Part shown: piece after piece, positions 1,335 to 11,137 of the stretch
Layout of the letters: the number at the start of each line of letters is the position of its first letter
How positions within the stretch are numbered: the first letter of the stretch is position 1
IMG/VR virus record: IMGVR_UViG_2541047596_000006
Length of the DNA: 11,137 bases
Reading direction: 5' to 3' (one strand)
From: a virus
Lineage: Duplodnaviria; Heunggongvirae; Uroviricota; Caudoviricetes
Position numbers and translations under genes: made by a program
The notes under the pieces: model-generated
Databases searched by the model: none
Seen by the model: only the letters and a program-made list of their open reading frames with translations
What the model was told of the DNA's origin: nothing

Positions 1335-1667
1335 TCAAGTAAGATGACGTCTTGGTCTCGCTGATGCCTGGCGCTCAATCCAGCGATCAATTTCTTCCAG
1401 GTTGTAAAAGCATGGACTGTTATCCCATGGCATACCGTCATGAGCGACATGCTTATATTCCCTTCCTTCCATAAACGATTTTTCCCGGGCCTTTTTTAAC
1501 GTACCTTTTTTTATTCCTTTCAGCGCAATTAACTGCTCTTCGGATGAGCGTTCTTGCCAGAGAGCTGGTAGCCAGTGGCGATGTATACAACTCCGGCTAC
1601 GGGTTATTCCCCTCTGAACAGGCGCGTAAGGACTGGCAAAACGCCCGCAAAAAACTCTCGAGGGCAA
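1335..1667 (-). CDS. Excisionase-like protein (lambda Xis-like segment in the C-terminal half); start codon uncertain
   Basis: The ORF ends 20 nt upstream of the int start on the same strand. The segment ...GTLKKAREKSFMEGREYKHVAHDG... resembles the lambda Xis core (...WVRECRIFPPPVKDGREYLFHESA...). The N-terminal 45 residues are Cys/Arg-rich and overlap a plus-strand ORF, so the true start may be internal or the gene may be decayed. Confidence 0.4.
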   Translation of the reverse strand: MPSRVFCGRFASPYAPVQRGITRSRSCIHRHWLPALWQERSSEEQLIALKGIKKGTLKKAREKSFMEGREYKHVAHDGMPWDNSPCFYNLEEIDRWIERQASARPRRHLT

Positions 1668-1840
1668 AGGTGAAGAAACCTGCTGTGGTTGATCCGGACC
1701 TTATCTGGTCATCACCTGACGGAGAAATACGTCGCTACGACAGTCGCCTAAACATAATCTGTCGCGAGTGCCGGAAGAGCGAAGTTATGCAGCGCATACT
1801 GGCTTTCTATCAGGGTAATTTTCAGGACGTGGCGCAGTGA
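1544..1840 (+). CDS. Hypothetical protein, overlapping the xis-like ORF on the opposite strand
   Basis: The ORF stop overlaps the GTG start of the downstream methyltransferase ORF by 4 nt (GTGA), a pattern typical of translational coupling. A GTG at 1670 preceded by GAGGG is an alternative start giving 56 aa and avoiding most of the overlap with xis. No family recognised. Confidence 0.3.
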   Translation: MSVLARELVASGDVYNSGYGLFPSEQARKDWQNARKKLSRAKVKKPAVVDPDLIWSSPDGEIRRYDSRLNIICRECRKSEVMQRILAFYQGNFQDVAQ

Positions 1841-2193
1841 GTGCACCGGCAACCATTCTTGATATGTGCTGTGGCAGCCGCATGTTCTGGTTCGATAAGT
1901 CTGACGAACGGGCGATATTCAGCGATATCAGAAAAGAAGGATACACATTACGCAATGGGAGACGCTTGATTATCAGCCCTGACATTATCGCAGATTTTCG
2001 TGCATTATCATTTGCAGACGCATCTTTTTCGATGGTTGTATTAGACCCTCCGCATCTTGAGAGTGTTGGTGATAACGCCTGGATGGGAAAGAAATATGGA
2101 CGGCTGAATAAAGATGCCTGGCGTGATGATTCGCGACAGAGATTTAAAGAAGCCTTTCGGGTGTTGAGGCCGCACGGCGTTCTGATTTTTTAA
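1837..2193 (+). CDS. SAM-dependent amino-methyltransferase fragment (N6-adenine/N4-cytosine type), probably truncated by a premature TAA
   Basis: Motif I-like LDMCCGSR (SAM-binding glycine-rich loop) and, about 55 residues later, a motif IV-like VVLDPPH ((D/N)PP(Y/F/W/H) amino-methyltransferase signature). 118 aa is too short for a complete methyltransferase fold, and the same frame stays open for 29 more codons after the TAA at 2191-2193 (to 2283). Confidence 0.55.
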   Translation: MSAPATILDMCCGSRMFWFDKSDERAIFSDIRKEGYTLRNGRRLIISPDIIADFRALSFADASFSMVVLDPPHLESVGDNAWMGKKYGRLNKDAWRDDSRQRFKEAFRVLRPHGVLIF

Positions 2194-2455
2194 TGGAATG
2201 AAACGCAAATACCGGTAAGCCAGATTCTGGCACTGACAGACAGAAAACCTGTTATCTGTCAACGAACAGGGAAAAAACGATAAAACCCACTGGATTATTT
2301 TTATGAAAGAGGCATCCAGTGAGTAGATTCGTAAGGCTACAGATACGTATATCTGAATAATTAAATTCAGTTCTGTAAATAAAATTTAATCCTTAACCGG
2401 ATGGATTTCTGCACCCTCAGAACATCAGGAGGCCGCCCGAAAGGGCGGTAGTGAA

Positions 2456-2638
2456 ATGCGAAAGTTCAAAATTATTATTGAAACGGGAATAGCTGGTGGA
2501 GATTTTGAGGATGTATTCGAAGTGGACGATGACGCAACACCTGAGGAAATTCATGACGGAGCATAAGAAATTTTCTTTAACTACTGCAATTACTCATACC
2601 ACGAAATAAAAGACGATGAGGAAGAACAAAGTGGCTGA
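2456..2638 (+). pseudogene. Small acidic ORF interrupted by one in-frame TAA (at 2564-2566)
   Basis: ATG at 2456 encodes MRKFKIIIETGIAGGDFEDVFEVDDDATPEEIHDGA, then TAA; the same frame continues as EIFFNYCNYSYHEIKDDEEEQSG to a TGA at 2636-2638. Protein-like composition on both sides of the stop. Confidence 0.3.
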
Positions 2639-2807
2639 TTTTTGTTCAGCTAAATATAACATCAGTTTTGAAGAGCGGGATGAACTATTAATGGACTATG
2701 GTGAGTTACGCGGTGGAAGTGCTGCTGATGTCGAATCCTAGCGTGATGACTATGAAGCGGGAAAAACTCCGGTCGAAGCATATTGTGATGAGTGGGGCGA
2801 TGAATGA
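2616..2807 (+). pseudogene. Small ORF interrupted by one in-frame TAG (at 2739-2741)
   Basis: MRKNKVADFCSAKYNISFEERDELLMDYGELRGGSAADVES, then TAG, then RDDYEAGKTPVEAYCDEWGDE ending at TGA 2805-2807, which overlaps the next ATG (ATGA). There is no in-frame start after the amber codon. Confidence 0.3.
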
Positions 2808-3090
2808 GCGAGATTAATTATCAGGAAGGGCATGAAACGGCGGGGCAAGCAAAACCAGTGGCATGGCGATATCGCTACGTGAAAAAAGGCGTTACGGACT
2901 TTCAGGGGAAGTAGTGGTCTGGTGACTGGAAATATGTACCGAAAAAAGAGGATTGTAACGACAGGCCGAACTATCAAATTCAGGCCTTATTCACTGCCTC
3001 ACCAGTCCCAGTTACATCAGAAGAACTGGTTAAAGCTGTGCACTTTTATGAACAACTAAAACGCGAAAATCCACCAACATCCGGCAACTA
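2804..3090 (+). pseudogene. 94-codon ORF interrupted by one in-frame TAG (at 2912-2914)
   Basis: MSEINYQEGHETAGQAKPVAWRYRYVKKGVTDFQGK, then TAG, then WSGDWKYVPKKEDCNDRPNYQIQALFTASPVPVTSEELVKAVHFYEQLKRENPPTSGN. Protein-like on both sides and no start codon after the stop. The start is coupled to the upstream ORF by an ATGA overlap. Confidence 0.35.
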
Positions 3091-3345
3091 GATTAATGGA
3101 TTAACTATGTCGGTTAAACGACCAGCCAACTGAAAAAGCGGAAACCTGATTACAGGTTGCCAGATAAGGCAATGAGCTACCTGGCGCGGAACGGACTGAT
3201 AAGTATGGGGAATGTTTTACGATGAACCTTTAGACTAAAGAGTTTGTAACGCTATGTAAGTGATTTTTTCTGGTTTAGATATTTATATGTCCGGCCAAAT
3301 TGAGGTGTGTTTAAATGTAATTGCACATTGATTGTAGGAGGAATA

Positions 3346-3525
3346 ATGAAAAACGCATTGCAGTTTTTGTTTGTTGCGTTCTGGTTGTTCGCATCATGTA
3401 TGCCCATCATCTTCACAGCAAGGTATATGGAAAAAGTTGATGTTTTGATATTAATATTTGGATATATAAATGCCCTTTTTTTAGGGGTGTTCATGGCGGT
3501 CATGTGCATTGAATACTGGCGGTAA
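3346..3525 (+). CDS. Small predicted membrane protein (59 aa, two hydrophobic helices)
   Basis: ATG at 3346 preceded by a near-consensus Shine-Dalgarno (GTAGGAGGAATA-ATG). The product MKNALQFLFVAFWLFASCMPIIFTARYMEKVDVLILIFGYINALFLGVFMAVMCIEYWR has two hydrophobic segments separated by a short charged loop. The ORF track's 72-aa version starts at an upstream ATG (3307) without a ribosome-binding site. Confidence 0.5.
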   Translation: MKNALQFLFVAFWLFASCMPIIFTARYMEKVDVLILIFGYINALFLGVFMAVMCIEYWR

Positions 3526-3831
3526 ATACAGCGAACTCCATTGGTTTAGTTGGATATTTACTGTGCTGGACAAAAACGGTTTGCGGGGAAATCTTAGTTA
3601 AGTAGAATGACTGCGGGTGCTTGAGGCTATCTGCCTCGGGCATGGACACCAACGGCAGATAGAGAAAAGCCCCAGTTAACATTACGCGTCCTGCAAGACG
3701 CTTAACATTAATCTGAGGCCAATTTCATGCTAGACACATGTAGGTTAGCCTCTTACGTGCCGAAAGGCACGGAGAAGCAGGCTATTGTTAACACCAAGCT
3801 GTAATGTCCCCTTTGAACCATTCTAAAATGT

Positions 3832-3858
3832 CCCCAGACAATTCTCTGGGGGATTTTT
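3832..3858 (+). promoter_or_regulatory. Terminator-like hairpin (CCCCAGA-caattc-TCTGGGG followed by GATTTTT) directly upstream of the transposase ATG; its 3' arm contains the likely ribosome-binding site
   Basis: Seen in sequence: a 7-bp stem (5 GC pairs) and a T5 run ending 2 nt before the ATG at 3860. The GGGGG that would serve as Shine-Dalgarno is inside the stem. Insertion sequences commonly use such a structure to block read-through transcription or translation of the transposase. Confidence 0.4.
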
Positions 3859-3859
3859 C

Positions 3860-5173
3860 ATGATCAAAGAGACTGTTACGATGAGTCATAAGGAACTCCA
3901 CCGACTTCAGATTATTCAGGAACAAGCTGCGGCACGCATTGGCATTTCTATTCGGCAGGTTAAACGTCTGGTGCAACGGTATAGAAATGAAGGGCCTTCT
4001 GGTCTGGTTTCCCACCGACGTGGAAAGCGTCCTAATAATTCCTTTTCTACTGAATTCAGAGCAACAGTAATTTCACTCCTCAAAGGCCGTTACGCTGATT
4101 TTGGACCTACGTTTGCGTGCGAAAAATTGCGCGAGATACACGGTTTATCTTTATCCGTTGAAACTCTCAGAAAGTGGATGATAGAAGAGGGGTTATGGCG
4201 TGAACGCCGTCGTAAAATTGCCCGTATATATCAACGCCGCATGCGACGACCATCTTACGGTGAACTGATCCAGATTGATGGCTCACCTCATGACTGGTTT
4301 GAAAATCGAGGCCCCAGATGTACACTGATCGTTTTCATTGATGATGCCACCAGTGCGTTGATGGCGTTGCGTTTTGTGCCTGCTGAAACAACCCGGGCTT
4401 ACATGGAAACCCTCCGGGGTTACCTTAATGATCATGGCGTACCGCTCGCTCTCTACTCTGATAGACACAGTATATTCAGGGTAAATAACCCAGAGCGGGA
4501 AGGTGAGCTGACCCAGTTCACTCGTGCGATAAAGACACTGGGCATCGAGCCAATCCATGCCAACAGCCCGCAGGCAAAAGGGCGGGTAGAGCGCGCCAAT
4601 CAGACACTACAGGACAGGCTGGTCAAAGAAATGCGGCTTCAGAATATCAGTGATATTGAAACAGCAAATGCATGGTTGCCGACCTTTATTGAAGCCTATA
4701 ACAACCGGTTCGCTACGTCGCCTCGTACTACTGATAATGCTCATCTTGATGTGCACCATTCTGAAGAGGAACTGGGTTATATCTTCAGCCTACAGGCGAA
4801 GCGCGTTCTGTCTAAAAATCTCACTTTCCAGTACAAAAGCAGTGCGTTTCAGGTACGCAGTGAGGGCCGGGGATATCGACTTAGGCATTCGGTTGTTACT
4901 GTATGCGAGAACTTTGACGGTGAAATTAACGTTCTGTATGACGGGAAAGCGCTGGGCTGGGAAAAGTATGTTGATGGCCCGGAGCCTATACCACTGGATG
5001 ATGAAAAGAGTGTCCATGAACGAGTGGATAATGCCCGTATTGATTTACGCTCAAAATACTATGTTAAACCTAAAGCTGACCATCCCTGGCTTACGCGCCG
5101 AACGCAAAGTCATCAGCAAGTTAAGCCCCCGAAGTTACCTAAAAAGAAGCCTGATCCCGATAAAAAAGATTGA
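3860..5173 (+). CDS. DDE transposase of the rve/integrase-core superfamily with N-terminal helix-turn-helix; most consistent with the ISNCY (IS1202 group) or IS481 family
   Basis: 437 aa. N-terminal helix-turn-helix (...RIGISIRQVKRLVQRYRNEG...). Catalytic core with D (LIQIDGSPH), D (LYSDRHSIF) and E (KGRVERANQTLQ) at the spacing typical of retroviral-integrase-like transposases. Basic C-terminal tail. Met8 (MSHKELHRL) is an alternative start. Confidence 0.85.
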   Translation: MIKETVTMSHKELHRLQIIQEQAAARIGISIRQVKRLVQRYRNEGPSGLVSHRRGKRPNNSFSTEFRATVISLLKGRYADFGPTFACEKLREIHGLSLSVETLRKWMIEEGLWRERRRKIARIYQRRMRRPSYGELIQIDGSPHDWFENRGPRCTLIVFIDDATSALMALRFVPAETTRAYMETLRGYLNDHGVPLALYSDRHSIFRVNNPEREGELTQFTRAIKTLGIEPIHANSPQAKGRVERANQTLQDRLVKEMRLQNISDIETANAWLPTFIEAYNNRFATSPRTTDNAHLDVHHSEEELGYIFSLQAKRVLSKNLTFQYKSSAFQVRSEGRGYRLRHSVVTVCENFDGEINVLYDGKALGWEKYVDGPEPIPLDDEKSVHERVDNARIDLRSKYYVKPKADHPWLTRRTQSHQQVKPPKLPKKKPDPDKKD

Positions 5174-5564
5174 AACCAAGATCGATTCGGTTGAGTGCAT
5201 ATCCATTCATAGGGTAGATTCTTAAGTCGCGTTTCTGGTGTTCATTTTCGGGTGGTTTGTTACTTGTTTTACCGGGGATATGCCAGAAACGCGCTGAGTC
5301 AGTCTGGGCGGTGCGCGTAATGAGGCGTTATGGTAAATAGCCTATGCTAATGTCCGCTAAGAGCAAGAAGCGGAAGTTGGCAGTTTTGTGGACTGTCCCC
5401 ACAAAAGTGACTACAGAAATAGTTGCAATTCATAATTGATCATGGGTTGTCAGTTAAACTCGTGGCGATTTAAATAGACTAATTGGGAGTGCGTCCATTA
5501 CTTATATCTTGTAATGTTAACTATCAGAAATGATACAAAGATAATATGTCTTTAAAGAAAAGGC

Positions 5565-5595
5565 TGATGGCGAAAAGTGGCCCGATGAGGGCCAC
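5565..5595 (-). terminator. Rho-independent terminator downstream of flxA
   Basis: Plus-strand GTGGCCC-gatga-GGGCCAC (5577-5595) is a 7-bp GC-rich stem. On the minus strand it is followed by a T-rich tract. It lies about 15 nt past the flxA stop. Confidence 0.5.
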
Positions 5596-5609
5596 AATAC
5601 GGCTGTCAC

Positions 5610-5942
5610 TTAGACGTAAATATCAATGGTGCCAGCGGTATTTGTATCGTCTTTTTTCTCTTCTTTTTTATCAGGCTGAACTGTCGCGTCTTCATTCTTT
5701 TTCTCTGCCTGCTGCCTTAACAACTGCTCCAGTTGAGCCCAGAGGCTTTCAATTTGCTTCTGTACCAATGCAGCCATTTCTTTTTTCTGCTGTGTCGTCA
5801 TCCCCTCTTCCGATGAGATTTTCCCAAGCTTTTCAGTCAGCACCTGAATTTGTCTTGTGATTTTGGCTATTTCTGATGTTCCTTCCGGGGCGGAGTTGTT
5901 TGAAATAACGGTTGAGGTATTTCCCTGAATTGTGACAGACAT
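5610..5942 (-). CDS. flxA: FlxA (sigma-28-dependent flagellar-regulon protein encoded in the Qin prophage)
   Basis: The 110-aa product MSVTIQGNTSTVISNNSAPEGTSEIAKITRQIQVLTEKLGK...TIDIYV matches my recollection of E. coli FlxA in length and sequence. Shine-Dalgarno AAAAGGAGA sits 7 nt upstream. A sigma-28-type promoter lies just upstream. Confidence 0.85.
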   Translation of the reverse strand: MSVTIQGNTSTVISNNSAPEGTSEIAKITRQIQVLTEKLGKISSEEGMTTQQKKEMAALVQKQIESLWAQLEQLLRQQAEKKNEDATVQPDKKEEKKDDTNTAGTIDIYV

Positions 5943-5965
5943 AGATTTCTCCTTTTAAAAAAGCA

Positions 5966-5992
5966 CTATCGGCATGCACAAAAAAATCTTTA
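5966..5992 (-). promoter_or_regulatory. Sigma-28 (FliA) class promoter for flxA
   Basis: On the minus strand TAAAGATT-N11-GCCGATAG, against the FliA consensus TAAAGTTT-N11-GCCGATAA (14 of 16 positions, exact 11-nt spacer). The -10 element lies about 25 nt upstream of the flxA ATG. Confidence 0.6.
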
Positions 5993-6144
5993 ATCGTATT
6001 TCTTGTGTCATTAATTGTTTGATGTTCAGATTGTTTTCCTCGCGGGCTGGCGCGCCTCAGAAAGTAAAGCTTGTTGACAGGGGTAAACGTTCGGCAATAA
6101 TTTTCTGCCGCATGCGGGTGTTGCATAAAACGTGTTACGTTCCT

Positions 6145-6450
6145 TTATCGACAGGTCAGGTCACCGCTCACCCGCCGACGAGAAAGCAACACTGACATGC
6201 TAAAGCAAAAAATAGATGAATAAGTTGAGTTGTGCATATGTAGCCTGACCGTCACAAAGTATATGGTGTCTGTACCAGTAAGATGATGGCCGGACTCTTT
6301 AAAAACGAGCAGACCTGCACAATACAGGATGGACTTAGCAATGGCTGCTCCTGGCACAAAGCGGACAGTGATCACCGTTCTTACGACTACTTTCTGACTT
6401 CCTTCGTGACTTGCCCTAAGCATGTTGTAGTGCGATACTTGTAATGACAT
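6145..6450 (-). CDS. Hypothetical ORF between flxA and relB (ydfV-like position and length); coding status doubtful
   Basis: 101-aa ORF in the position where E. coli K-12 annotates the 101-aa ydfV between relB and flxA. The composition is atypical and there is no recognisable domain. Confidence 0.25.
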   Translation of the reverse strand: MSLQVSHYNMLRASHEGSQKVVVRTVITVRFVPGAAIAKSILYCAGLLVFKESGHHLTGTDTIYFVTVRLHMHNSTYSSIFCFSMSVLLSRRRVSGDLTCR

Positions 6451-6463
6451 TTGTAATTACAAG
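6411..6463 (+). promoter_or_regulatory. relBE promoter with overlapping operator palindrome
   Basis: TTGCCC-17nt-GATACT is a sigma-70-like -35/-10 pair. The inverted repeat CTTGTAAT-gacatttgta-ATTACAAG (6438-6463) contains two TTGTAAT hexads and overlaps the -10 element, consistent with RelB/RelE autorepression. Confidence 0.6.
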
Positions 6464-6474
6464 AGGTGTAAGAC

Positions 6475-6714
6475 ATGGGTAGCATTAACCTGCGTATTGA
6501 CGATGAACTTAAAGCGCGTTCTTACGCCGCGCTTGAAAAAATGGGTGTAACTCCTTCTGAAGCGCTTCGTCTCATGCTCGAGTATATCGCTGACAATGAA
6601 CGCTTGCCGTTCAAACAGACACTCCTGAGTGATGAAGATGCTGAACTTGTGGAGATAGTGAAAGAACGGCTTCGTAATCCTAAGCCAGTACGTGTGACGC
6701 TGGATGAACTCTGA
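6475..6714 (+). CDS. relB: RelB antitoxin (type II toxin-antitoxin)
   Basis: The 79-aa product MGSINLRIDDELKARSYAALEKMGVTPSEALR... is near-identical to my recollection of E. coli RelB. Its stop overlaps the relE start (TGATG). Confidence 0.95.
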   Translation: MGSINLRIDDELKARSYAALEKMGVTPSEALRLMLEYIADNERLPFKQTLLSDEDAELVEIVKERLRNPKPVRVTLDEL

Positions 6715-7001
6715 TGGCGTATTTTCTGGATTTTGACGAGCGGGCACTAAAGGAATGGCGAAAGCTGGGCTCGACGGTACGTGAACAGTTGAAAAAGAAG
6801 CTGGTTGAAGTACTTGAGTCACCCCGGATTGAAGCAAACAAGCTCCGTGGTATGCCTGATTGTTACAAGATTAAGCTCCGGTCTTCAGGCTATCGCCTTG
6901 TATACCAGGTTATAGACGAGAAAGTTGTCGTTTTCGTGATTTCTGTTGGGAAAAGAGAACGCTCGGAAGTATATAGCGAGGCGGTCAAACGCATTCTCTG
7001 A
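6714..7001 (+). CDS. relE: RelE toxin (ribosome-dependent mRNA interferase)
   Basis: The 95-aa product MAYFLDFDERALKEWRKLGSTVREQLKKKL...VISVGKRERSEVY matches E. coli RelE and is translationally coupled to relB. Confidence 0.95.
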   Translation: MAYFLDFDERALKEWRKLGSTVREQLKKKLVEVLESPRIEANKLRGMPDCYKIKLRSSGYRLVYQVIDEKVVVFVISVGKRERSEVYSEAVKRIL

Positions 7002-7072
7002 ACCAAAGCATGACATCTCTGTTTCGCACCGAAGGTGACACTTCTGCTTTGCGTTGACAGGAGAAGCAGGCT

Positions 7073-7228
7073 ATGAAGCAGCAAAAGGCGATGTTAATCG
7101 CCCTGATCGTCATCTGTTTAACCGTCATAGTGACGGCACTGGTAACGAGGAAAGACCTCTGCGAGGTACGAATCCGAACCGGCCAGACGGAGGTCGCTGT
7201 CTTCACAGCTTACGAACCTGAGGAGTAA
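7073..7228 (+). CDS. hokD: Hok-family type I toxin (HokD/RelF), 51 aa
   Basis: Not in the supplied ORF track (under 60 aa). My translation is MKQQKAMLIALIVICLTVIVTALVTRKDLCEVRIRTGQTEVAVFTAYEPEE: an N-terminal transmembrane helix and the conserved Hok C-terminal half. It is the third gene after relBE, as in Qin. Confidence 0.85.
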   Translation: MKQQKAMLIALIVICLTVIVTALVTRKDLCEVRIRTGQTEVAVFTAYEPEE

Positions 7229-7296
7229 GAGACCCGGCGGGGGAGAAATCCCTCGCCACCTCTGATGTGGCAGGCATCCTCAACGCACCCGCACTT

Positions 7297-7327
7297 AACC
7301 CGCTTCGGCGGGTTTTTGTTTTTATTT
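7297..7327 (+). terminator. Rho-independent terminator ending the relBE-hokD transcript
   Basis: AACCCGC-ttcg-GCGGGTT stem-loop followed by TTTTTGTTTTTATTTT. Confidence 0.6.
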
Positions 7328-7438
7328 TCAACGCGTTTGAAGTTCTGGACGGTGCCGGAATAGAATCAAAAATACTTAAGTAGCGCGCAGGGATAAGAGG
7401 GATGGTCCCTTAAGGGTAAAGGGATTGTTCTGGATGAA

Positions 7439-7672
7439 AAAAGAACCCGGTTTCATGGCGTACCGGTATATAAGATTTGTGGGCGTTGTAATGGAAACCG
7501 GTTTAGTCGTTTACCGACCACGCTGGCACGACGTCATGTCCAGAAGCTGGTACCAGACCTGACCGATTATCAGTGGTATAAGGGGTATGCGGACGTCATT
7601 GGTAAACTGGTAACAAAGTGCTGGCAGGAAGAAGCATACGCGGAAGCGCAATTGAGGAAGGTGACGAGATAA
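7439..7672 (+). pseudogene. 3' remnant of a Q-like late antiterminator gene (no start codon)
   Basis: Open frame without an ATG start translating to KRTRFHGVPVYKICGRCNGNRFSRLPTTLARRHVQKLVPDLTDYQWYKGYADVIGKLVTKCWQEEAYAEAQLRKVTR. It has a Cys-rich zinc-finger-like segment and a basic C-terminus, and sits where Qin carries quuQ, between hokD and cspF. The family call is by recollection and context. Confidence 0.35.
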
Positions 7673-7703
7673 ATGATTTTTGCTGAAGATGGCGACATGA
7701 TGT

Positions 7704-7732
7704 TTGCATTTTTCAAAAAATATGGATAAAAT
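7704..7732 (+). promoter_or_regulatory. Strong sigma-70-like promoter (TTGCAT-17nt-TAAAAT), candidate late promoter (PR'-like) downstream of the Q remnant
   Basis: The -35 TTGCAT and -10 TAAAAT with a 17-nt spacer were read directly. It lies about 35 nt past the Q-remnant stop and about 45 nt before a strong terminator, the arrangement of PR'/qut/tR' in lambdoid phages. Confidence 0.35.
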
Positions 7733-7777
7733 TTTTTCAACGATGGGCTTTGTATACCCGACGTTAAGAAAAAGTAG

Positions 7778-7805
7778 AAAACCCGCTGATGAGCGGGTTT
7801 TGTGC
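7778..7805. terminator. Strong, probably bidirectional, intrinsic terminator (AAAACCCGCT-gatg-AGCGGGTTTT)
   Basis: A 10-bp perfect stem with T-rich flanks on both strands. Confidence 0.55.
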
Positions 7806-8093
7806 TTTAAATGGGGCAATGGTAATGTTGAATCTCATCCCGGGACTCATGTCTGTTAACTTATTATTTAGCTGGTGACTTGGTTATTTGCCTGATGTTT
7901 AAAATGTTTTCTTCCAGTACAATGTCCCTAAACACAATGAGTCTGCTTATTATATTATTAGCAGAGCTATTACGGCCAAAGTACAGCATAAGCTTTTAAA
8001 GCCAATCAACCAGTCATCAAGACAGACGGGGTTATTCATAAAAACTCTCCATGTGTGATCCGATGGGGCCTGAAATTAAAGCTTTAATATAGC

Positions 8094-8306
8094 TCATGAA
8101 AGGTAAACATTGGCAGCTGAAGGGCCACGCAGACCATTTATCCGGCAAAATTCCACGCGTAATCCGGTGGTAATTTCTTCTGCATCGCGGAGATTGAGCG
8201 CTGAAACATGAAGCTGGACATCGATACGACCATCGGATGGGGTGATAAGACCCTTGCCGCTTTTGCCGTCAAAGGTTTTGACAATTCCTGTCATTTTACG
8301 GGACAA
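8094..8306 (-). CDS. cspF: CspA-family cold-shock protein paralog (CspF-like), 70 aa
   Basis: [70 protein letters not shown] has the cold-shock-domain architecture but degenerate RNP motifs, as in CspF/CspH. It is divergent from cspB, as in Qin. Confidence 0.85.
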
Positions 8307-8606
8307 AAAAATTCCTTAATACTGATAACTTGGCGCACTATACACACGTTCCTGAAGAAAGCTATAGTTTTTTGATGGGGTTGAAGATGGCTGGATGTCT
8401 AAAATAAACATTGCTTCATATGTTCAACTATGCGTTAATGATTGCGTCGGTTTGAAGAACAGACGATATACGAAGTAGTTTACTAAAGCAGTTCTCATTT
8501 CAGGTGTTATTCACTTATTCCTTCTTTGAGTCTCTCCAATTAAGTACGAAGTCGTTTCTGTTATGCAAACCATTTATGCCGAAAGGCTCAAGTTAAGGAA
8601 TGTAGA

Positions 8607-8822
8607 ATGTCAAATAAAATGACTGGTTTAGTAAAATGGTTTAACGCTGATAAAGGTTTCGGCTTTATTTCTCCTGTTGATGGTAGTAAAGATGTGTTTG
8701 TGCATTTTTCTGCGATTCAGAATGATAATTATCGAACCTTATTTGAAGGTCAAAAGGTTACCTTCTCTATAGAGAGTGGTGCTAAAGGTCCTGCAGCAGC
8801 AAATGTCATCATTACTGATTAA
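8607..8822 (+). CDS. cspB: Cold-shock protein CspB, 71 aa
   Basis: [67 protein letters not shown]... has the canonical RNP1 (KGFGFI) and RNP2 (VFVHF) motifs. A long upstream untranslated region (about 300 nt to cspF) is typical of cold-shock genes. Confidence 0.9.
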
Positions 8823-8933
8823 AATTCATCGCTCGTCTGTATACGATAACGAAGAAGGCTGATGCCTGAGTAGAGATACGGACAGAGTAGTGAATATTGG
8901 ATCTCTTTAATAAAAAGTAAGGAGGTCCAATAC

Positions 8934-8969
8934 ATGAAACAATGGCTAGCATATTTGGCAAAATCTTAA
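8934..8969 (+). other. Tiny ORF (11 codons, MKQWLAYLAKS) with a consensus Shine-Dalgarno; function unknown
   Basis: TAAGGAGGT lies 8 nt upstream of the ATG. Two further tiny overlapping ORFs follow (MLTIVVKCRFAA at about 8990; MNSFTAEANCWHGKTKCVSG, coupled by ATGA) before the terminator at 9104. Confidence 0.25.
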
Positions 8970-9103
8970 TCAGGAAAAGTATGCTAACCATTGTGGTGAA
9001 GTGCAGGTTTGCTGCATGAATAGTTTTACAGCAGAAGCTAACTGCTGGCATGGCAAAACAAAGTGCGTAAGTGGATGACTCCCACAAAAAGCACCACAAT
9101 CTC

Positions 9104-9130
9104 AAACCCGCTCAGGCGGGTTTTTTATTA
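9104..9130 (+). terminator. Rho-independent terminator (AAACCCGC-tcag-GCGGGTTT followed by TTTATTAT)
   Basis: An 8-bp GC-rich stem followed by a T-tract on the plus strand; it terminates the cspB and tiny-ORF transcript. Confidence 0.6.
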
Positions 9131-9185
9131 TCTGCTTTAAATATATTATTAAAATATAAAAAATACTTGTTACTAATAAAATCAA

Positions 9186-9356
9186 TCAGGCTACAGCTTT
9201 AAGATTTGTCTGGAATACTTTGTTGCAATGAGGGCAGATCAAAAGGGCACCTTTTTGTACTCTTGAAAAACTGTGTTCTGACTCTTGGGTGCAGTTTGGG
9301 CAGGAACATTTAACGAGATAATTACGGCGTGATTTTGAGTTTTTACGTTCTGACAT
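9186..9356 (-). CDS. Small zinc-ribbon-like protein (56 aa; C-x-C-x2-C ... C-x2-C)
   Basis: From the internal Met: MSERKNSKSRRNYLVKCSCPNCTQESEHSFSRVQKGALLICPHCNKVFQTNLKAVA. AGGA lies 9-12 nt upstream. The ORF track's longer version (start at 9407) adds a hydrophobic extension without a ribosome-binding site. It may correspond to one of the small Qin/Rac cold-shock-associated genes, but I cannot confirm. Confidence 0.45.
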   Translation of the reverse strand: MSERKNSKSRRNYLVKCSCPNCTQESEHSFSRVQKGALLICPHCNKVFQTNLKAVA

Positions 9357-9575
9357 AGGCTTTTCCTGTATAAATGGCCGTATACAGTACACTAAATATG
9401 AAAACATTTCTCGTATTATTATTTTATATATGACTTTCTTTCAAAATAATTACCCACATTTTTAATGTGTATGTTTTTTTAGCGCCGTTGAGAACAACGT
9501 GTGCTGTCAAAACTACCCCGTAGACTCCGATCTTTTCAAACATATTGCACCATCCGTGTACATCGGGGTGAGGAT

Positions 9576-9791
9576 ATGAAATCAATGGATAAGTTAACAA
9601 CAGGTGTTGCCTATGGCACATCGGCGGGTAATGCTGGTTTCTGGGCATTGCAGTTACTCGATAAAGTAACTCCGTCACAGTGGGCTGCAATCGGTGTGCT
9701 GGGTAGCCTGGTTTTTGGCCTGCTGACGTATCTGACAAATCTTTATTTCAAGATTAAAGAAGACAGGCGTAAGGCTGCGAGAGGAGAGTAA
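9576..9791 (+). CDS. essQ: Phage holin, 71 aa, lambdoid phage 21 S-type (pinholin-like) with a dual-start motif
   Basis: [71 protein letters not shown] has two transmembrane segments and a charged C-terminus. The Met1-Lys-Ser-Met4 start resembles the S21 holin/antiholin dual start. The ORF track starts 25 codons upstream (9501) without supporting signals. Confidence 0.85.
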
Positions 9792-9795
9792 TCCA

Positions 9796-10103
9796 ATGAC
9801 TCAAGACTATGAACTGGTTGTGAAAGGAGTCCGTAATTTTGAGAATAAAGTTACGGTAACTGTAGCCTTACAGGACAAAGAACGCTTTGACGGTGAAATT
9901 TTTGACCTGGATGTCGCCATGGACCGTGTTGAAGGAGCTGCGCTGGAGTTTTATGAGGCAGCAGCCAGAAGGAGCGCCCGGCAAGTCTTCCTGGAAGTAG
10001 CAGAAAAATTGTCAGAAAAAGTTGAGTCTTATCTGCAGCATCAGTACTCCTTTAAGATTGAAAATCCTGCCAATAAGCACGAGCGTCCTCATCATAAATA
10101 TCT

Positions 10104-10107
<4 letters not shown>
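9796..10107 (+). CDS. ydfR: Conserved phage protein of unknown function located between holin and endolysin (YdfR-like), 103 aa
   Basis: Ribosome-binding site GAGGAGAG. It sits between the holin and the endolysin as in Qin (essQ-ydfR-rrrQ), and its stop overlaps the endolysin start (ATGA). Confidence 0.75.

Positions 10108-11137
<1,030 letters not shown>

Follow-up and report, generated by a model that had tools for sequence, protein, structure and literature searches.

Stepwise prophage decay as the probable origin of a run of interrupted genes in a Qin-type prophage of Escherichia coli

Four interrupted reading frames in a stretch of Caudoviricetes DNA 11,137 nucleotides in length (IMG/VR record IMGVR_UViG_2541047596_000006, hereafter 'the window') are very probably ordinary decaying pseudogenes, the remains of dispensable accessory genes from the operon of a Qin-type prophage. 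Their pseudogene status is already known, for public annotation flags these genes: RefSeq/PGAP describes the gene of the DUF7167 family as carrying an 'internal stop' and the last gene of the run, which in its intact form encodes 171 amino acids, as 'frameshifted; internal stop'. Nothing specific to these genes was found in the literature on ECOR13 prophages and Qin pseudogenes. The run of in-frame stops is striking to the eye, but as normal prophage decay it has little importance beyond correct annotation.

We propose that positions 1540-3225 represent a run of decaying accessory genes in the rightward early operon of a prophage integrated beside rspB, and that these genes lost their function step by step through five nonsense mutations, frameshifts caused by one added base and by a 4-bp deletion, a 90-bp deletion between short direct repeats, and a weakened start codon. 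The 171-aa gene would have broken first, with the lesions of the methyltransferase, DUF7167 and 58-aa genes arising later, on the Qin/rspB lineage, and a 4.7-kb deletion added in this window only. The lesion-bearing allele would then have spread to, or been inherited by, hundreds of strains, within which neutral decay would be continuing. Such genes would die together because they form one operon with one selective fate, and an upstream stop may, through polarity and the loss of translational coupling, have lowered expression of the overlapping genes downstream.

Interrupted genes of a rightward prophage operon

Matches to E. coli chromosomes identify the window as a Qin-type lambdoid prophage adjoining rspB and place it between rspB and cspI/gnsB, with dicA/dicC, relBE, hokD, cspB/F, essD, rrrQ and rzpQ alongside. 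Positions 1-1545 and 1540-11115 match a fuller Qin copy (L007) at 1501-3045 and 7712-17287 respectively, and the intervening deletion has removed exo, dicA, dicC, ydaT and O, genes that other Qin copies retain (Table 1). No match spanning the resulting junction of xis with the DUF977 gene was returned by megablast from 5,426 complete E. coli genomes, and an exact search of GTDB species representatives likewise found none. This deletion is the only reason that the decayed genes lie beside int and xis in the window. Their assignment to an early-left operon in the original prediction was wrong: in fuller copies they follow the replication gene O in the rightward operon, where lambda has its nin region, in the order O, DUF977, methyltransferase, DUF7167, 58-aa gene and 171-aa gene. 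Decay of the prophage extends further, to an ISNCY transposase pseudogene and large deletions, and relatives have truncated copies of Q and exo.

The 4-bp overlaps that had been taken as the mark of a once-coupled operon are present (GTGA at 1837, ATGA at 2804), and the overlapping genes probably form a translationally coupled operon. PGAP ends a 423-bp DUF977 coding sequence 4 bp inside that of the methyltransferase (loci L001 and L002), with homology to the window beginning at 1540.

Table 1. Features of the decayed region and its left-hand junction (positions are those of the window)
Feature	Position	Strand	Details
Deletion junction, ~4.67 kb lost	1540..1545	.	6 bp microhomology; truncated xis joined to truncated DUF977 gene
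DUF977 family gene, 3' remnant	1540..1840	+	5' part lost to deletion; stop overlaps methyltransferase start (GTGA)
Small class I SAM-dependent (DNA) methyltransferase pseudogene, ~162 aa repaired	1837..2326	+	AAA to TAA at 2191-2193; +1 G in run 2269-2271
Conserved intergenic module	2353..2455	+	AGGAGG 2427-2432; 6-7-bp GC stem with GAAA loop, 2432/2433-2448/2449; 6-7 nt; ATG 2456
DUF7167 pseudogene, 60 codons	2456..2638	+	One lesion: AAA (Lys37) to TAA at 2564-2566
58-aa acidic protein pseudogene	2631..2807	+	Start ATG to GTG (2631); TGG (Trp37) to TAG at 2739-2741
171-aa phage protein pseudogene (phrog_660)	2804..3225	+	TAG 2912-2914; 90-bp deletion 3067/3068; TAG 3089-3091; 4-bp deletion 3122/3123

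All four of the in-frame stops first noticed in this region are present (from 2191, 2564, 2739 and 2912), and beyond each of them the frame stays open for 23-60 codons; the post-stop parts of both middle ORFs lack any in-frame ATG, GTG or TTG, as had been claimed. Alignment with intact homologues, found for all four genes, confirmed that the stops interrupt conserved proteins, with sense codons at every site (AAA, AAA, TGG and, in the last gene, CCG, CAG, CTG or ATG). The repaired proteins match full-length PHROG or Pfam profiles, and none of the four matches an NCBIfam model. The further claim that each gene is broken by exactly one stop and no frameshift holds for the DUF7167 and 58-aa genes, but not for the methyltransferase, with its additional G, nor for the last gene, with its second stop and deletions; the impression of one stop each arose because the true gene ends were not known.

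Both lesions of the methyltransferase gene are seen when it is aligned and its translation compared with those of 28RC1, an Stx2c phage and a Klebsiella phage, and IMG/VR copies of the gene carry AAA at the stop site and are without the extra G. The frame had appeared open to 2283 because the +1 G frameshift alters the C-terminus; comparison with intact homologues of ~160 aa reveals the inserted base, and the real end is the TAG at 2324-2326. Once repaired, the protein matches phrog_954 ('DNA methyltransferase') over residues 4-161 with E=6e-80. Two motifs are visible in its translation: DMCCGSRMF, a candidate SAM-binding motif, and DPPH, which may be read as a catalytic motif of the DPPY type. 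Pfam returned only Methyltransf_11, below the cut-off, and a sequence search of the PDB found no relative.

With its stop read as X, the DUF7167 protein matches PF23768 (E=3.1e-13; 50.0 bits against a cut-off of 24.4) from residue 2 to 53, covering positions 1-60 of the 60-position profile; it also falls in phrog_1997 (E=1.6e-29) and has intact 60-aa homologues in WP_001224662 and WP_001224679. The 58-aa protein belongs with phrog_519 (E=1.6e-13) and with the intact homologues WP_000753058, WP_000753059 and WP_000753064. These homologues set its start at 2631, giving an 8-bp overlap with the DUF7167 gene, and a start at the ATG at 2616 was ruled out. In the 171-aa gene, whose intact homologue matches phrog_660 with E=4e-75, the apparent end proves to be a further nonsense mutation, CAG to TAG, and the gene in fact ends with the TGA at 3223-3225. 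Against the loci that encode WP_001289994 (L005 and L006), its 90-bp deletion is in frame and its 4-bp deletion is frameshifting.

Nonsense bias, spread and order of decay

The region had been described as a run of nonsense-only lesions, a description that fails once two frameshifts, the 90-bp deletion and the 4.7-kb deletion are seen to lie in the same run. A random substitution in these genes would yield a stop in some 4-5% of cases, and the tally of five nonsense to two frameshift lesions has P ~0.04-0.28 under an assumed indel:substitution ratio of 0.05-0.1. A nonsense share of 5/7 point lesions is somewhat high, and would be significant if that ratio were 0.2. Adding the later lesions of sister copies brings the count to ~5 nonsense and 5 frameshifting indels; on the strength of these P values and of this even tally, the nonsense-heavy pattern is not beyond chance. 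The two small genes have accumulated around a dozen neutral substitutions, a rough estimate, and their 2 stops exceed the ~0.6 expected, though not significantly.

That estimate is rough because no immediate ancestor of the window allele was recovered: a repaired query of 1,230 nt, with seven lesion bases reverted, found nothing above 99.4% identity (~seven mismatches) in the 5,426 complete E. coli genomes. A near-full-length match occurs in 384 of these genomes, and the best 40 of the 384 all score like the window allele, with ATCC 8739, W, 042, IAI39, CE10 and O55:H7 among them. Every lesion is kept in each of the 23 close copies that were aligned base by base (15 from IMG/VR and 8 E. coli or phage records). 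That the genes are dispensable is in keeping with PhiR42_1 of ECOR13, a 48.7-kb Qin relative that carries the same lesions together with a full annotated set of head, tail, Q and lysis genes. In a CFT073-like clade, 93-95% identical, the DUF7167 and 58-aa genes are intact, while TAG 2912, the 90-bp deletion and indels peculiar to that clade are already there. The 171-aa gene thus broke first, since its lesions are common to a related clade with intact neighbouring genes, and the lesion series as a whole puts the steps by which a widespread Qin haplotype decayed into a dated order.

Sister copies have gone on to gather lesions of their own, including 1-bp deletions at 2842 and 2888, a 2-bp insertion at 2882, the loss of a start codon (ATG to ACG at 2457) and, in one copy, a change of TAG to TAA at 2741. 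Polymorphism inside the lesion-bearing clade looks unconstrained: the pre-stop segments hold 10 nonsynonymous and 4 synonymous changes, small counts of low statistical power, and the density of polymorphism is similar in post-stop and intergenic segments. Between the window allele and intact alleles pN/pS is 0.12-0.27, and from this low ratio the neutral phase would have been short.

Competing explanations for the stops

A very different account has translation continuing past the stops, whether because the original host supplied a suppressor tRNA or because readthrough is programmed, so that low, regulated expression persists. We consider this very improbable. In principle UAA and UAG might both be decoded by an ochre suppressor, and the frames do remain open past the stops. 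The survey of Belinky et al. (PMC7918605), which names TGA as the leaky stop, makes the case that bacteria tolerate and read through some in-frame stops. Here, however, the stops are limited to one clade, every one of the sites is a sense codon in homologues, and readthrough could not rescue two of the proteins: the methyltransferase has a +1 frameshift downstream of its stop, and the 171-aa gene has a second stop, a 4-bp frameshift and a 90-bp deletion. UAA, present at two of the four sites, is generally held to be the least leaky stop in E. coli. The frameshifts that follow the stops in sister copies, the lost start codon, the exchange of TAG for TAA and the mostly nonsynonymous polymorphism within the clade all weigh against continued expression. 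ARAGORN found no tRNA gene in the window, and a search for recoding signals there returned Rfam matches to sok and cspA elements only. The suppressor background or programmed readthrough raised in the original prediction is therefore not supported, and such explanations are unnecessary.

Adaptive loss deserves somewhat more credit, although we judge it unlikely. Here the methyltransferase and the small acidic proteins would impose a cost on the lysogen or the phage, or do it harm, by off-target methylation, for example, or by interference with host functions; knock-outs would be selected, and nonsense would be merely the first lesion available. The methyltransferase seems to have been lost repeatedly in independent lineages, having been broken at least three times: by the TAA and extra G here, by TGG to TAG in an O157-type prophage (strain 28RC1) and by a frameshift in Salmonella phage Oslo, a phage isolated from sewage. 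The half-length 'DNA methyltransferase' families phrog_11564 and phrog_6151 in PHROGs, which hold the N- or C-terminal part only, are compatible with frequent truncated copies. Furthermore, the lesions are fixed, with no exception among the full-length copies found, and are already present in the structurally complete prophage PhiR42_1, and the low pN/pS against intact alleles makes inactivation recent relative to divergence. Recurrent loss of dispensable accessory genes is, however, also expected from neutral decay, and fixation is explicable if the lesions hitch-hiked on a single prophage haplotype, the interior of which hardly varies from strain to strain. Nor are the genes intolerable in general, since intact copies of each of the four are common elsewhere among prophages and phages. 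Nothing found here requires the inactivation of a toxic operon that had been suggested.

An extended form of the adaptive account is just as doubtful. It would have knock-outs selected in a cluster that pairs an orphan DNA methyltransferase with small acidic proteins, possibly a lambdoid anti-restriction or anti-defence cassette, and that is repeatedly silenced after the phage settles in a host; in that case the module at 2353-2455 would act as a portable split ribosome-binding cassette marking the exchange junction for such accessory genes. As for a sequencing or assembly artefact in the window, its probability is negligible, and the idea is refuted by the occurrence of the same bases in hundreds of independent complete genomes, a phage record and IMG/VR contigs. 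Stepwise decay of dispensable genes is accordingly the explanation that we retain.

A conserved hairpin module and comparison with known systems

The hairpin noted ahead of the first small ORF (CCGCCC-GAAA-GGGCGG, 2433-2448) is real and belongs to a conserved module. Homology to many lambdoid prophages begins at 2353, and the module adjoins differing flanking genes; across 121 IMG/VR contexts, the arrangement of Shine-Dalgarno (SD) sequence, hairpin and start codon precedes at least 4 different genes. In the window the SD lies 23 nt from the ATG at 2456, the spacer TAGTGAA has no SD-like run, and the same is seen in at least 4 other gene contexts. Both minimum free energy and centroid folds contain a 7-bp stem with a GAAA loop, which 6-7 nt separate from the AUG. 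Of 138 copies, retrieved with a search pattern that fixed the stem sequence and so left divergent stems unsampled, 137 have the same stem, and the one exception, a C to T change, keeps a G-U pair; no covariation can be obtained from an invariant stem. Neither of two other roles was adopted. For a terminator, there is no T-tract after the hairpin, which the terminator scan did not call. Lambda boxB has a GNRA-like loop, but no convincing boxA was seen upstream and the constant geometry of SD, hairpin and start fits a split ribosome-binding site better than a nut-like boxA/boxB element.

Split initiation regions of this kind are known from phage T4, where the SD sequences of genes 38 and 25 lie 22 and 27 nt from the AUG and a hairpin brings the spacing to 5 and 11 nt (PMC3014915). 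The module resembles them in having a strong SD 23 nt away that the predicted hairpin would bring to ~6-7 nt. It differs in belonging to lambdoid rather than T-even phages, in being common to several downstream genes and in being known here from its sequence and predicted fold. By this analogy, we regard it as a candidate lambdoid example of a T4-type split ribosome-binding site.

The stops themselves recall several known systems. Among prokaryotic genes, in-frame stops are commonest in the COG category of phages and transposons, where many have been suggested to be pseudogenes (Belinky et al. 2021, PMC7918605), and domestication and decay of defective prophages are the subject for which that paper cites Bobay et al. 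(2014). As in the mobilome stops of that survey, orthologous in-frame stops in prophage genes are here common to many genomes; unlike them, in that the survey's case for tolerated readthrough rests on dN/dS <1 near stops, the changes within this clade look unconstrained and are accompanied by frameshifts. Laboratory phages grown on suppressor hosts likewise have amber and ochre conditional-lethal mutants, in which the change of one base creates TAG or TAA within a gene, but the present alleles are natural, come from wild isolates of many sources, affect genes that are not essential, occur alongside frameshifts and deletions, and have no suppressor in the window.

Another parallel is the Qin/Kim region of K-12 (dicA-dicC, relBE-hokD, cspB/F/I, essQ-rrrQ-rzpQ), which occupies the same chromosomal neighbourhood as the window. 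K-12 Qin has presumably lost int, xis and the methyltransferase/DUF7167 segment; the window variant differs in retaining them, and in its own 4.7-kb deletion between xis and DUF977, unseen in 5,426 complete genomes. The two nevertheless share the rspB flank, relBE, hokD, flxA, ydfV, ydfW, cspF, cspB, ydfR, rrrQ and rzpQ, and, like the window, cryptic prophage Qin with its annotated pseudogenes has decayed by point lesions, IS insertions and deletions.

Structure of the interrupted genes

The four interrupted genes that follow the DUF977 remnant are ordinary decaying pseudogenes of a widespread prophage haplotype, and their state is already annotated: in RefSeq, PGAP labels DUF7167 'internal stop', the last gene 'frameshifted; internal stop' and, in some strains, the methyltransferase likewise 'frameshifted; internal stop'. 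The original prediction was partly right in its observation and mostly wrong in its interpretation. Sequence and translation checks place the four stops where it had put them, with frames open beyond each, and its GTGA and ATGA overlaps agree with CDS overlaps in annotated relatives. Its description of exactly one stop and no frameshift per gene, however, survives alignment with homologues in just two genes, DUF7167 and the 58-aa gene. Intact methyltransferase homologues are ~160 aa long, ending ...QRTGKNDKTHWIIFMKEA..., and carry neither the stop nor the extra G of the window, so the frame thought open to 2283 is the wrong one. The 58-aa gene begins at 2631 rather than the proposed 2616, and the last gene, 171 aa in intact copies, has four lesions, among them a second nonsense codon that had been read as its natural end. 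The methyltransferase stop (context 2186-2193, TTTTTAAA -> TTTTTTAA) lies where two homopolymer runs meet, and one might speculate that transient misalignment could have produced the substitution. Profile matches of the repaired proteins, in which the window lesions are reverted, are full length; NCBIfam searches with the four proteins and a PDB sequence search with the methyltransferase yielded nothing further.

Features of the region, with profile matches of repaired proteins (intact homologue for the 171-aa gene)
Feature	Position	Detail	Profile match
Integrase	20-1315	minus strand	
Deletion junction	1540-1545	6 bp microhomology	
GTGA overlap	1837		
Methyltransferase			phrog_954 'DNA methyltransferase', E=6e-80, residues 4-161
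 nonsense	2191	AAA -> TAA	
 insertion	2269-2271	extra G in run	
 gene end	2324-2326	TAG	
Intergenic module	2353-2455	103 bp	
 Shine-Dalgarno	2427-2432	AGGAGG	
 hairpin	2433-2448	CCGCCC-GAAA-GGGCGG	
DUF7167	start 2456	ATG	Pfam PF23768, E=3e-13; phrog_1997, E=2e-29
 nonsense	2564	TAA	
58-aa gene	start 2631	GTG (ATG in intact copies); 8 bp overlap with DUF7167	phrog_519, E=2e-13
 nonsense	2739	TAG	
ATGA overlap	2804		
171-aa gene	2804-3225		phrog_660, E=4e-75
 nonsense	2912	TAG	
 deletion	3067/3068	90 bp, in frame; flanking AATCCRCCA repeats (read by eye in alignment)	
 nonsense	3089	CAG -> TAG	
 deletion	3122/3123	4 bp	
sok antitoxin (Rfam)	3615-3786	104 bits	
hokD	7073-7228		
cspA thermoregulator (Rfam)	8446-8838	159 bits, full length	

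Prophage context and spread of the lesions

In megablast comparisons with 5,426 complete E. coli genomes, both the region and the whole window matched a Qin-type lambdoid prophage adjoining rspA-rspB. The integrase is followed by xis, the studied region, an ISNCY transposase pseudogene, ydfW, flxA, ydfV, relBE and hokD, and further on by a Q remnant, cspF, cspB, essD, ydfR, rrrQ and rzpQ. The studied genes abut int/xis in the window only because a deletion of ~4.67 kb, which truncated both xis and DUF977, has removed exo through O; its junction had no match in the 5,426 E. coli genomes or the GTDB species representatives. Fuller copies carry dicA, dicC, ydaT, replication gene O and then the studied genes on a rightward operon, a nin-like accessory position incompatible with the early-left operon that had been proposed. 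The cspA thermoregulator match lies 5' of cspB, as expected for Qin cold-shock genes. The homology that other prophages show to hok/sok breaks off at 3785 and restarts at 7059, just upstream of hokD; the sok/leader region is therefore separated from the coding sequence of hokD by 3.3 kb holding the ISNCY transposase pseudogene, ydfW, flxA, ydfV and relBE.

When 1837-3067 was searched against complete E. coli genomes with seven lesion bases reverted, the best matches were all 99.4% identical (~7 mismatches over 1,230 nt), and the window-like allele was not outranked by any copy with fewer lesions. Near-full-length matches occurred in 384 genomes, including ATCC 8739, W, 042, IAI39, CE10, UMNK88 and an O55:H7 strain. 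Among 121 contexts from an IMG/VR scan for the hairpin, 15 copies have 99% identity or more with the window, and all of these share TAA 2191, the extra G, TAA 2564, GTG 2631 and TAG at 2739, 2912 and 3089. Further changes in some of the 15 are a 1-bp deletion at 2888 or a 2-bp insertion at 2882, and a single copy shows TAG -> TAA at 2741. The extra deletions recur in three E. coli relatives (~99% identity), which also show ACG in place of ATG at the start of DUF7167. A CFT073-like clade (93-95% identical) retains DUF7167 and the 58-aa gene intact, with TAG 2912 already present alongside A-run indels of its own, and a clade at ~88% identity is intact throughout (AAA, ATG, TGG, CCG, CAG; 90 bp and 4 bp retained). 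The 171-aa gene thus broke first and the other three later, with decay ongoing. Codon 2912, where uninterrupted, is CCG, CAG, CTG or ATG, so that TAG probably arose from CAG in a single step. Between IAI39 and O15_8X, strains of different phylogroups, the flank (rspA/rspB, integrase, xis) differs at 34 of 3,748 nt (0.9%) and the prophage interior with the pseudogenes at 4 of ~10,277 (0.04%), a contrast suggesting that one Qin haplotype spread recently, by re-lysogenisation or recombination, rather than by ancient vertical descent.

Readthrough, selection or chance

Programmed readthrough or origin in a suppressor background had been offered as explanations. Even a survey proposing frequent bacterial readthrough finds in-frame stops commonest in the phage/transposon COG category and suggests that many of these are pseudogenes (PMC7918605). 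Five results argue against readthrough or suppression here: the stops are conserved within one clade and not beyond it, two of the four genes are past rescue by readthrough, sister copies accumulate breaks in the frames downstream, one stop has changed to a different stop codon, and the window contains no tRNA gene (Rfam finds only the sok and cspA elements). Selected inactivation of toxic genes, or knock-outs that were otherwise adaptive, might draw on the independent breakage of the methyltransferase in an O157-type prophage of strain 28RC1 (TGG -> TAG, L004 2503-2976) and in the sewage-isolated Salmonella phage Oslo (frameshift, L009 586-1080), and on half-length methyltransferase families in PHROGs; yet all four genes are commonly found intact elsewhere, and selection need not be invoked. 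PhiR42_1 of ECOR13, a 48.7-kb Qin relative annotated with a full head, tail, Q and lysis gene set, carries the lesions as well, which marks the studied genes as dispensable accessory genes; the lesions may be older than the large deletions that left Qin cryptic.

Chance could account for the run of stops. Between 4.2 and 5.1% of random substitutions in these sequences create a stop; on the assumption of an indel rate 0.05-0.1 times that of substitutions, nonsense changes should account for roughly one-third to one-half of disruptive point lesions, and at least five of seven would be nonsense with P ~0.04-0.28. Counted clade-wide with the later sister-copy indels, the tally is ~5 nonsense to 5 frameshifts. 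Clustering is expected of overlapping genes sharing one operon and one selective fate, and an upstream stop would lower expression of the coupled genes downstream. The window's DUF7167 and 58-aa genes give pN/pS of 0.12-0.27 against intact alleles, so their divergence dates mostly from a functional period and the window carries a distinct, formerly working allele; intact related alleles have some of its amino-acid states. Across 24 sequences of the lesion-bearing clade, pre-stop segments hold 10 nonsynonymous and 4 synonymous polymorphisms, at a density similar to post-stop and intergenic segments, which, for such small counts, is consistent with relaxed constraint.

The intergenic hairpin

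The predicted hairpin is present, with a stem of 7 bp including a G-U closing pair (2432-2449) in both minimum-energy and centroid folds. An intrinsic terminator was rejected, as no T-tract follows the stem. The hairpin sits in a conserved module that starts at a mosaic junction and is common to many lambdoid prophages, with differing genes on either side. The strong Shine-Dalgarno sequence lies directly 5' of the stem and the start codon 6-9 nt after it; across the IMG/VR contexts, four or more different genes are preceded by this arrangement. Among the copies retrieved with a search pattern that fixed the stem sequence, the stem is invariant but for one change that keeps a G-U pair, and is thus too uniform to show covariation. 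In the predicted fold, stem formation would cut the spacing from Shine-Dalgarno to AUG from 23 nt to ~6-7 nt, and the module may thus act as a split ribosome-binding site. Split initiation regions are known for T4 genes 38 and 25, where Shine-Dalgarno sequence, hairpin and AUG have the same geometry as in this module (PMC3014915).
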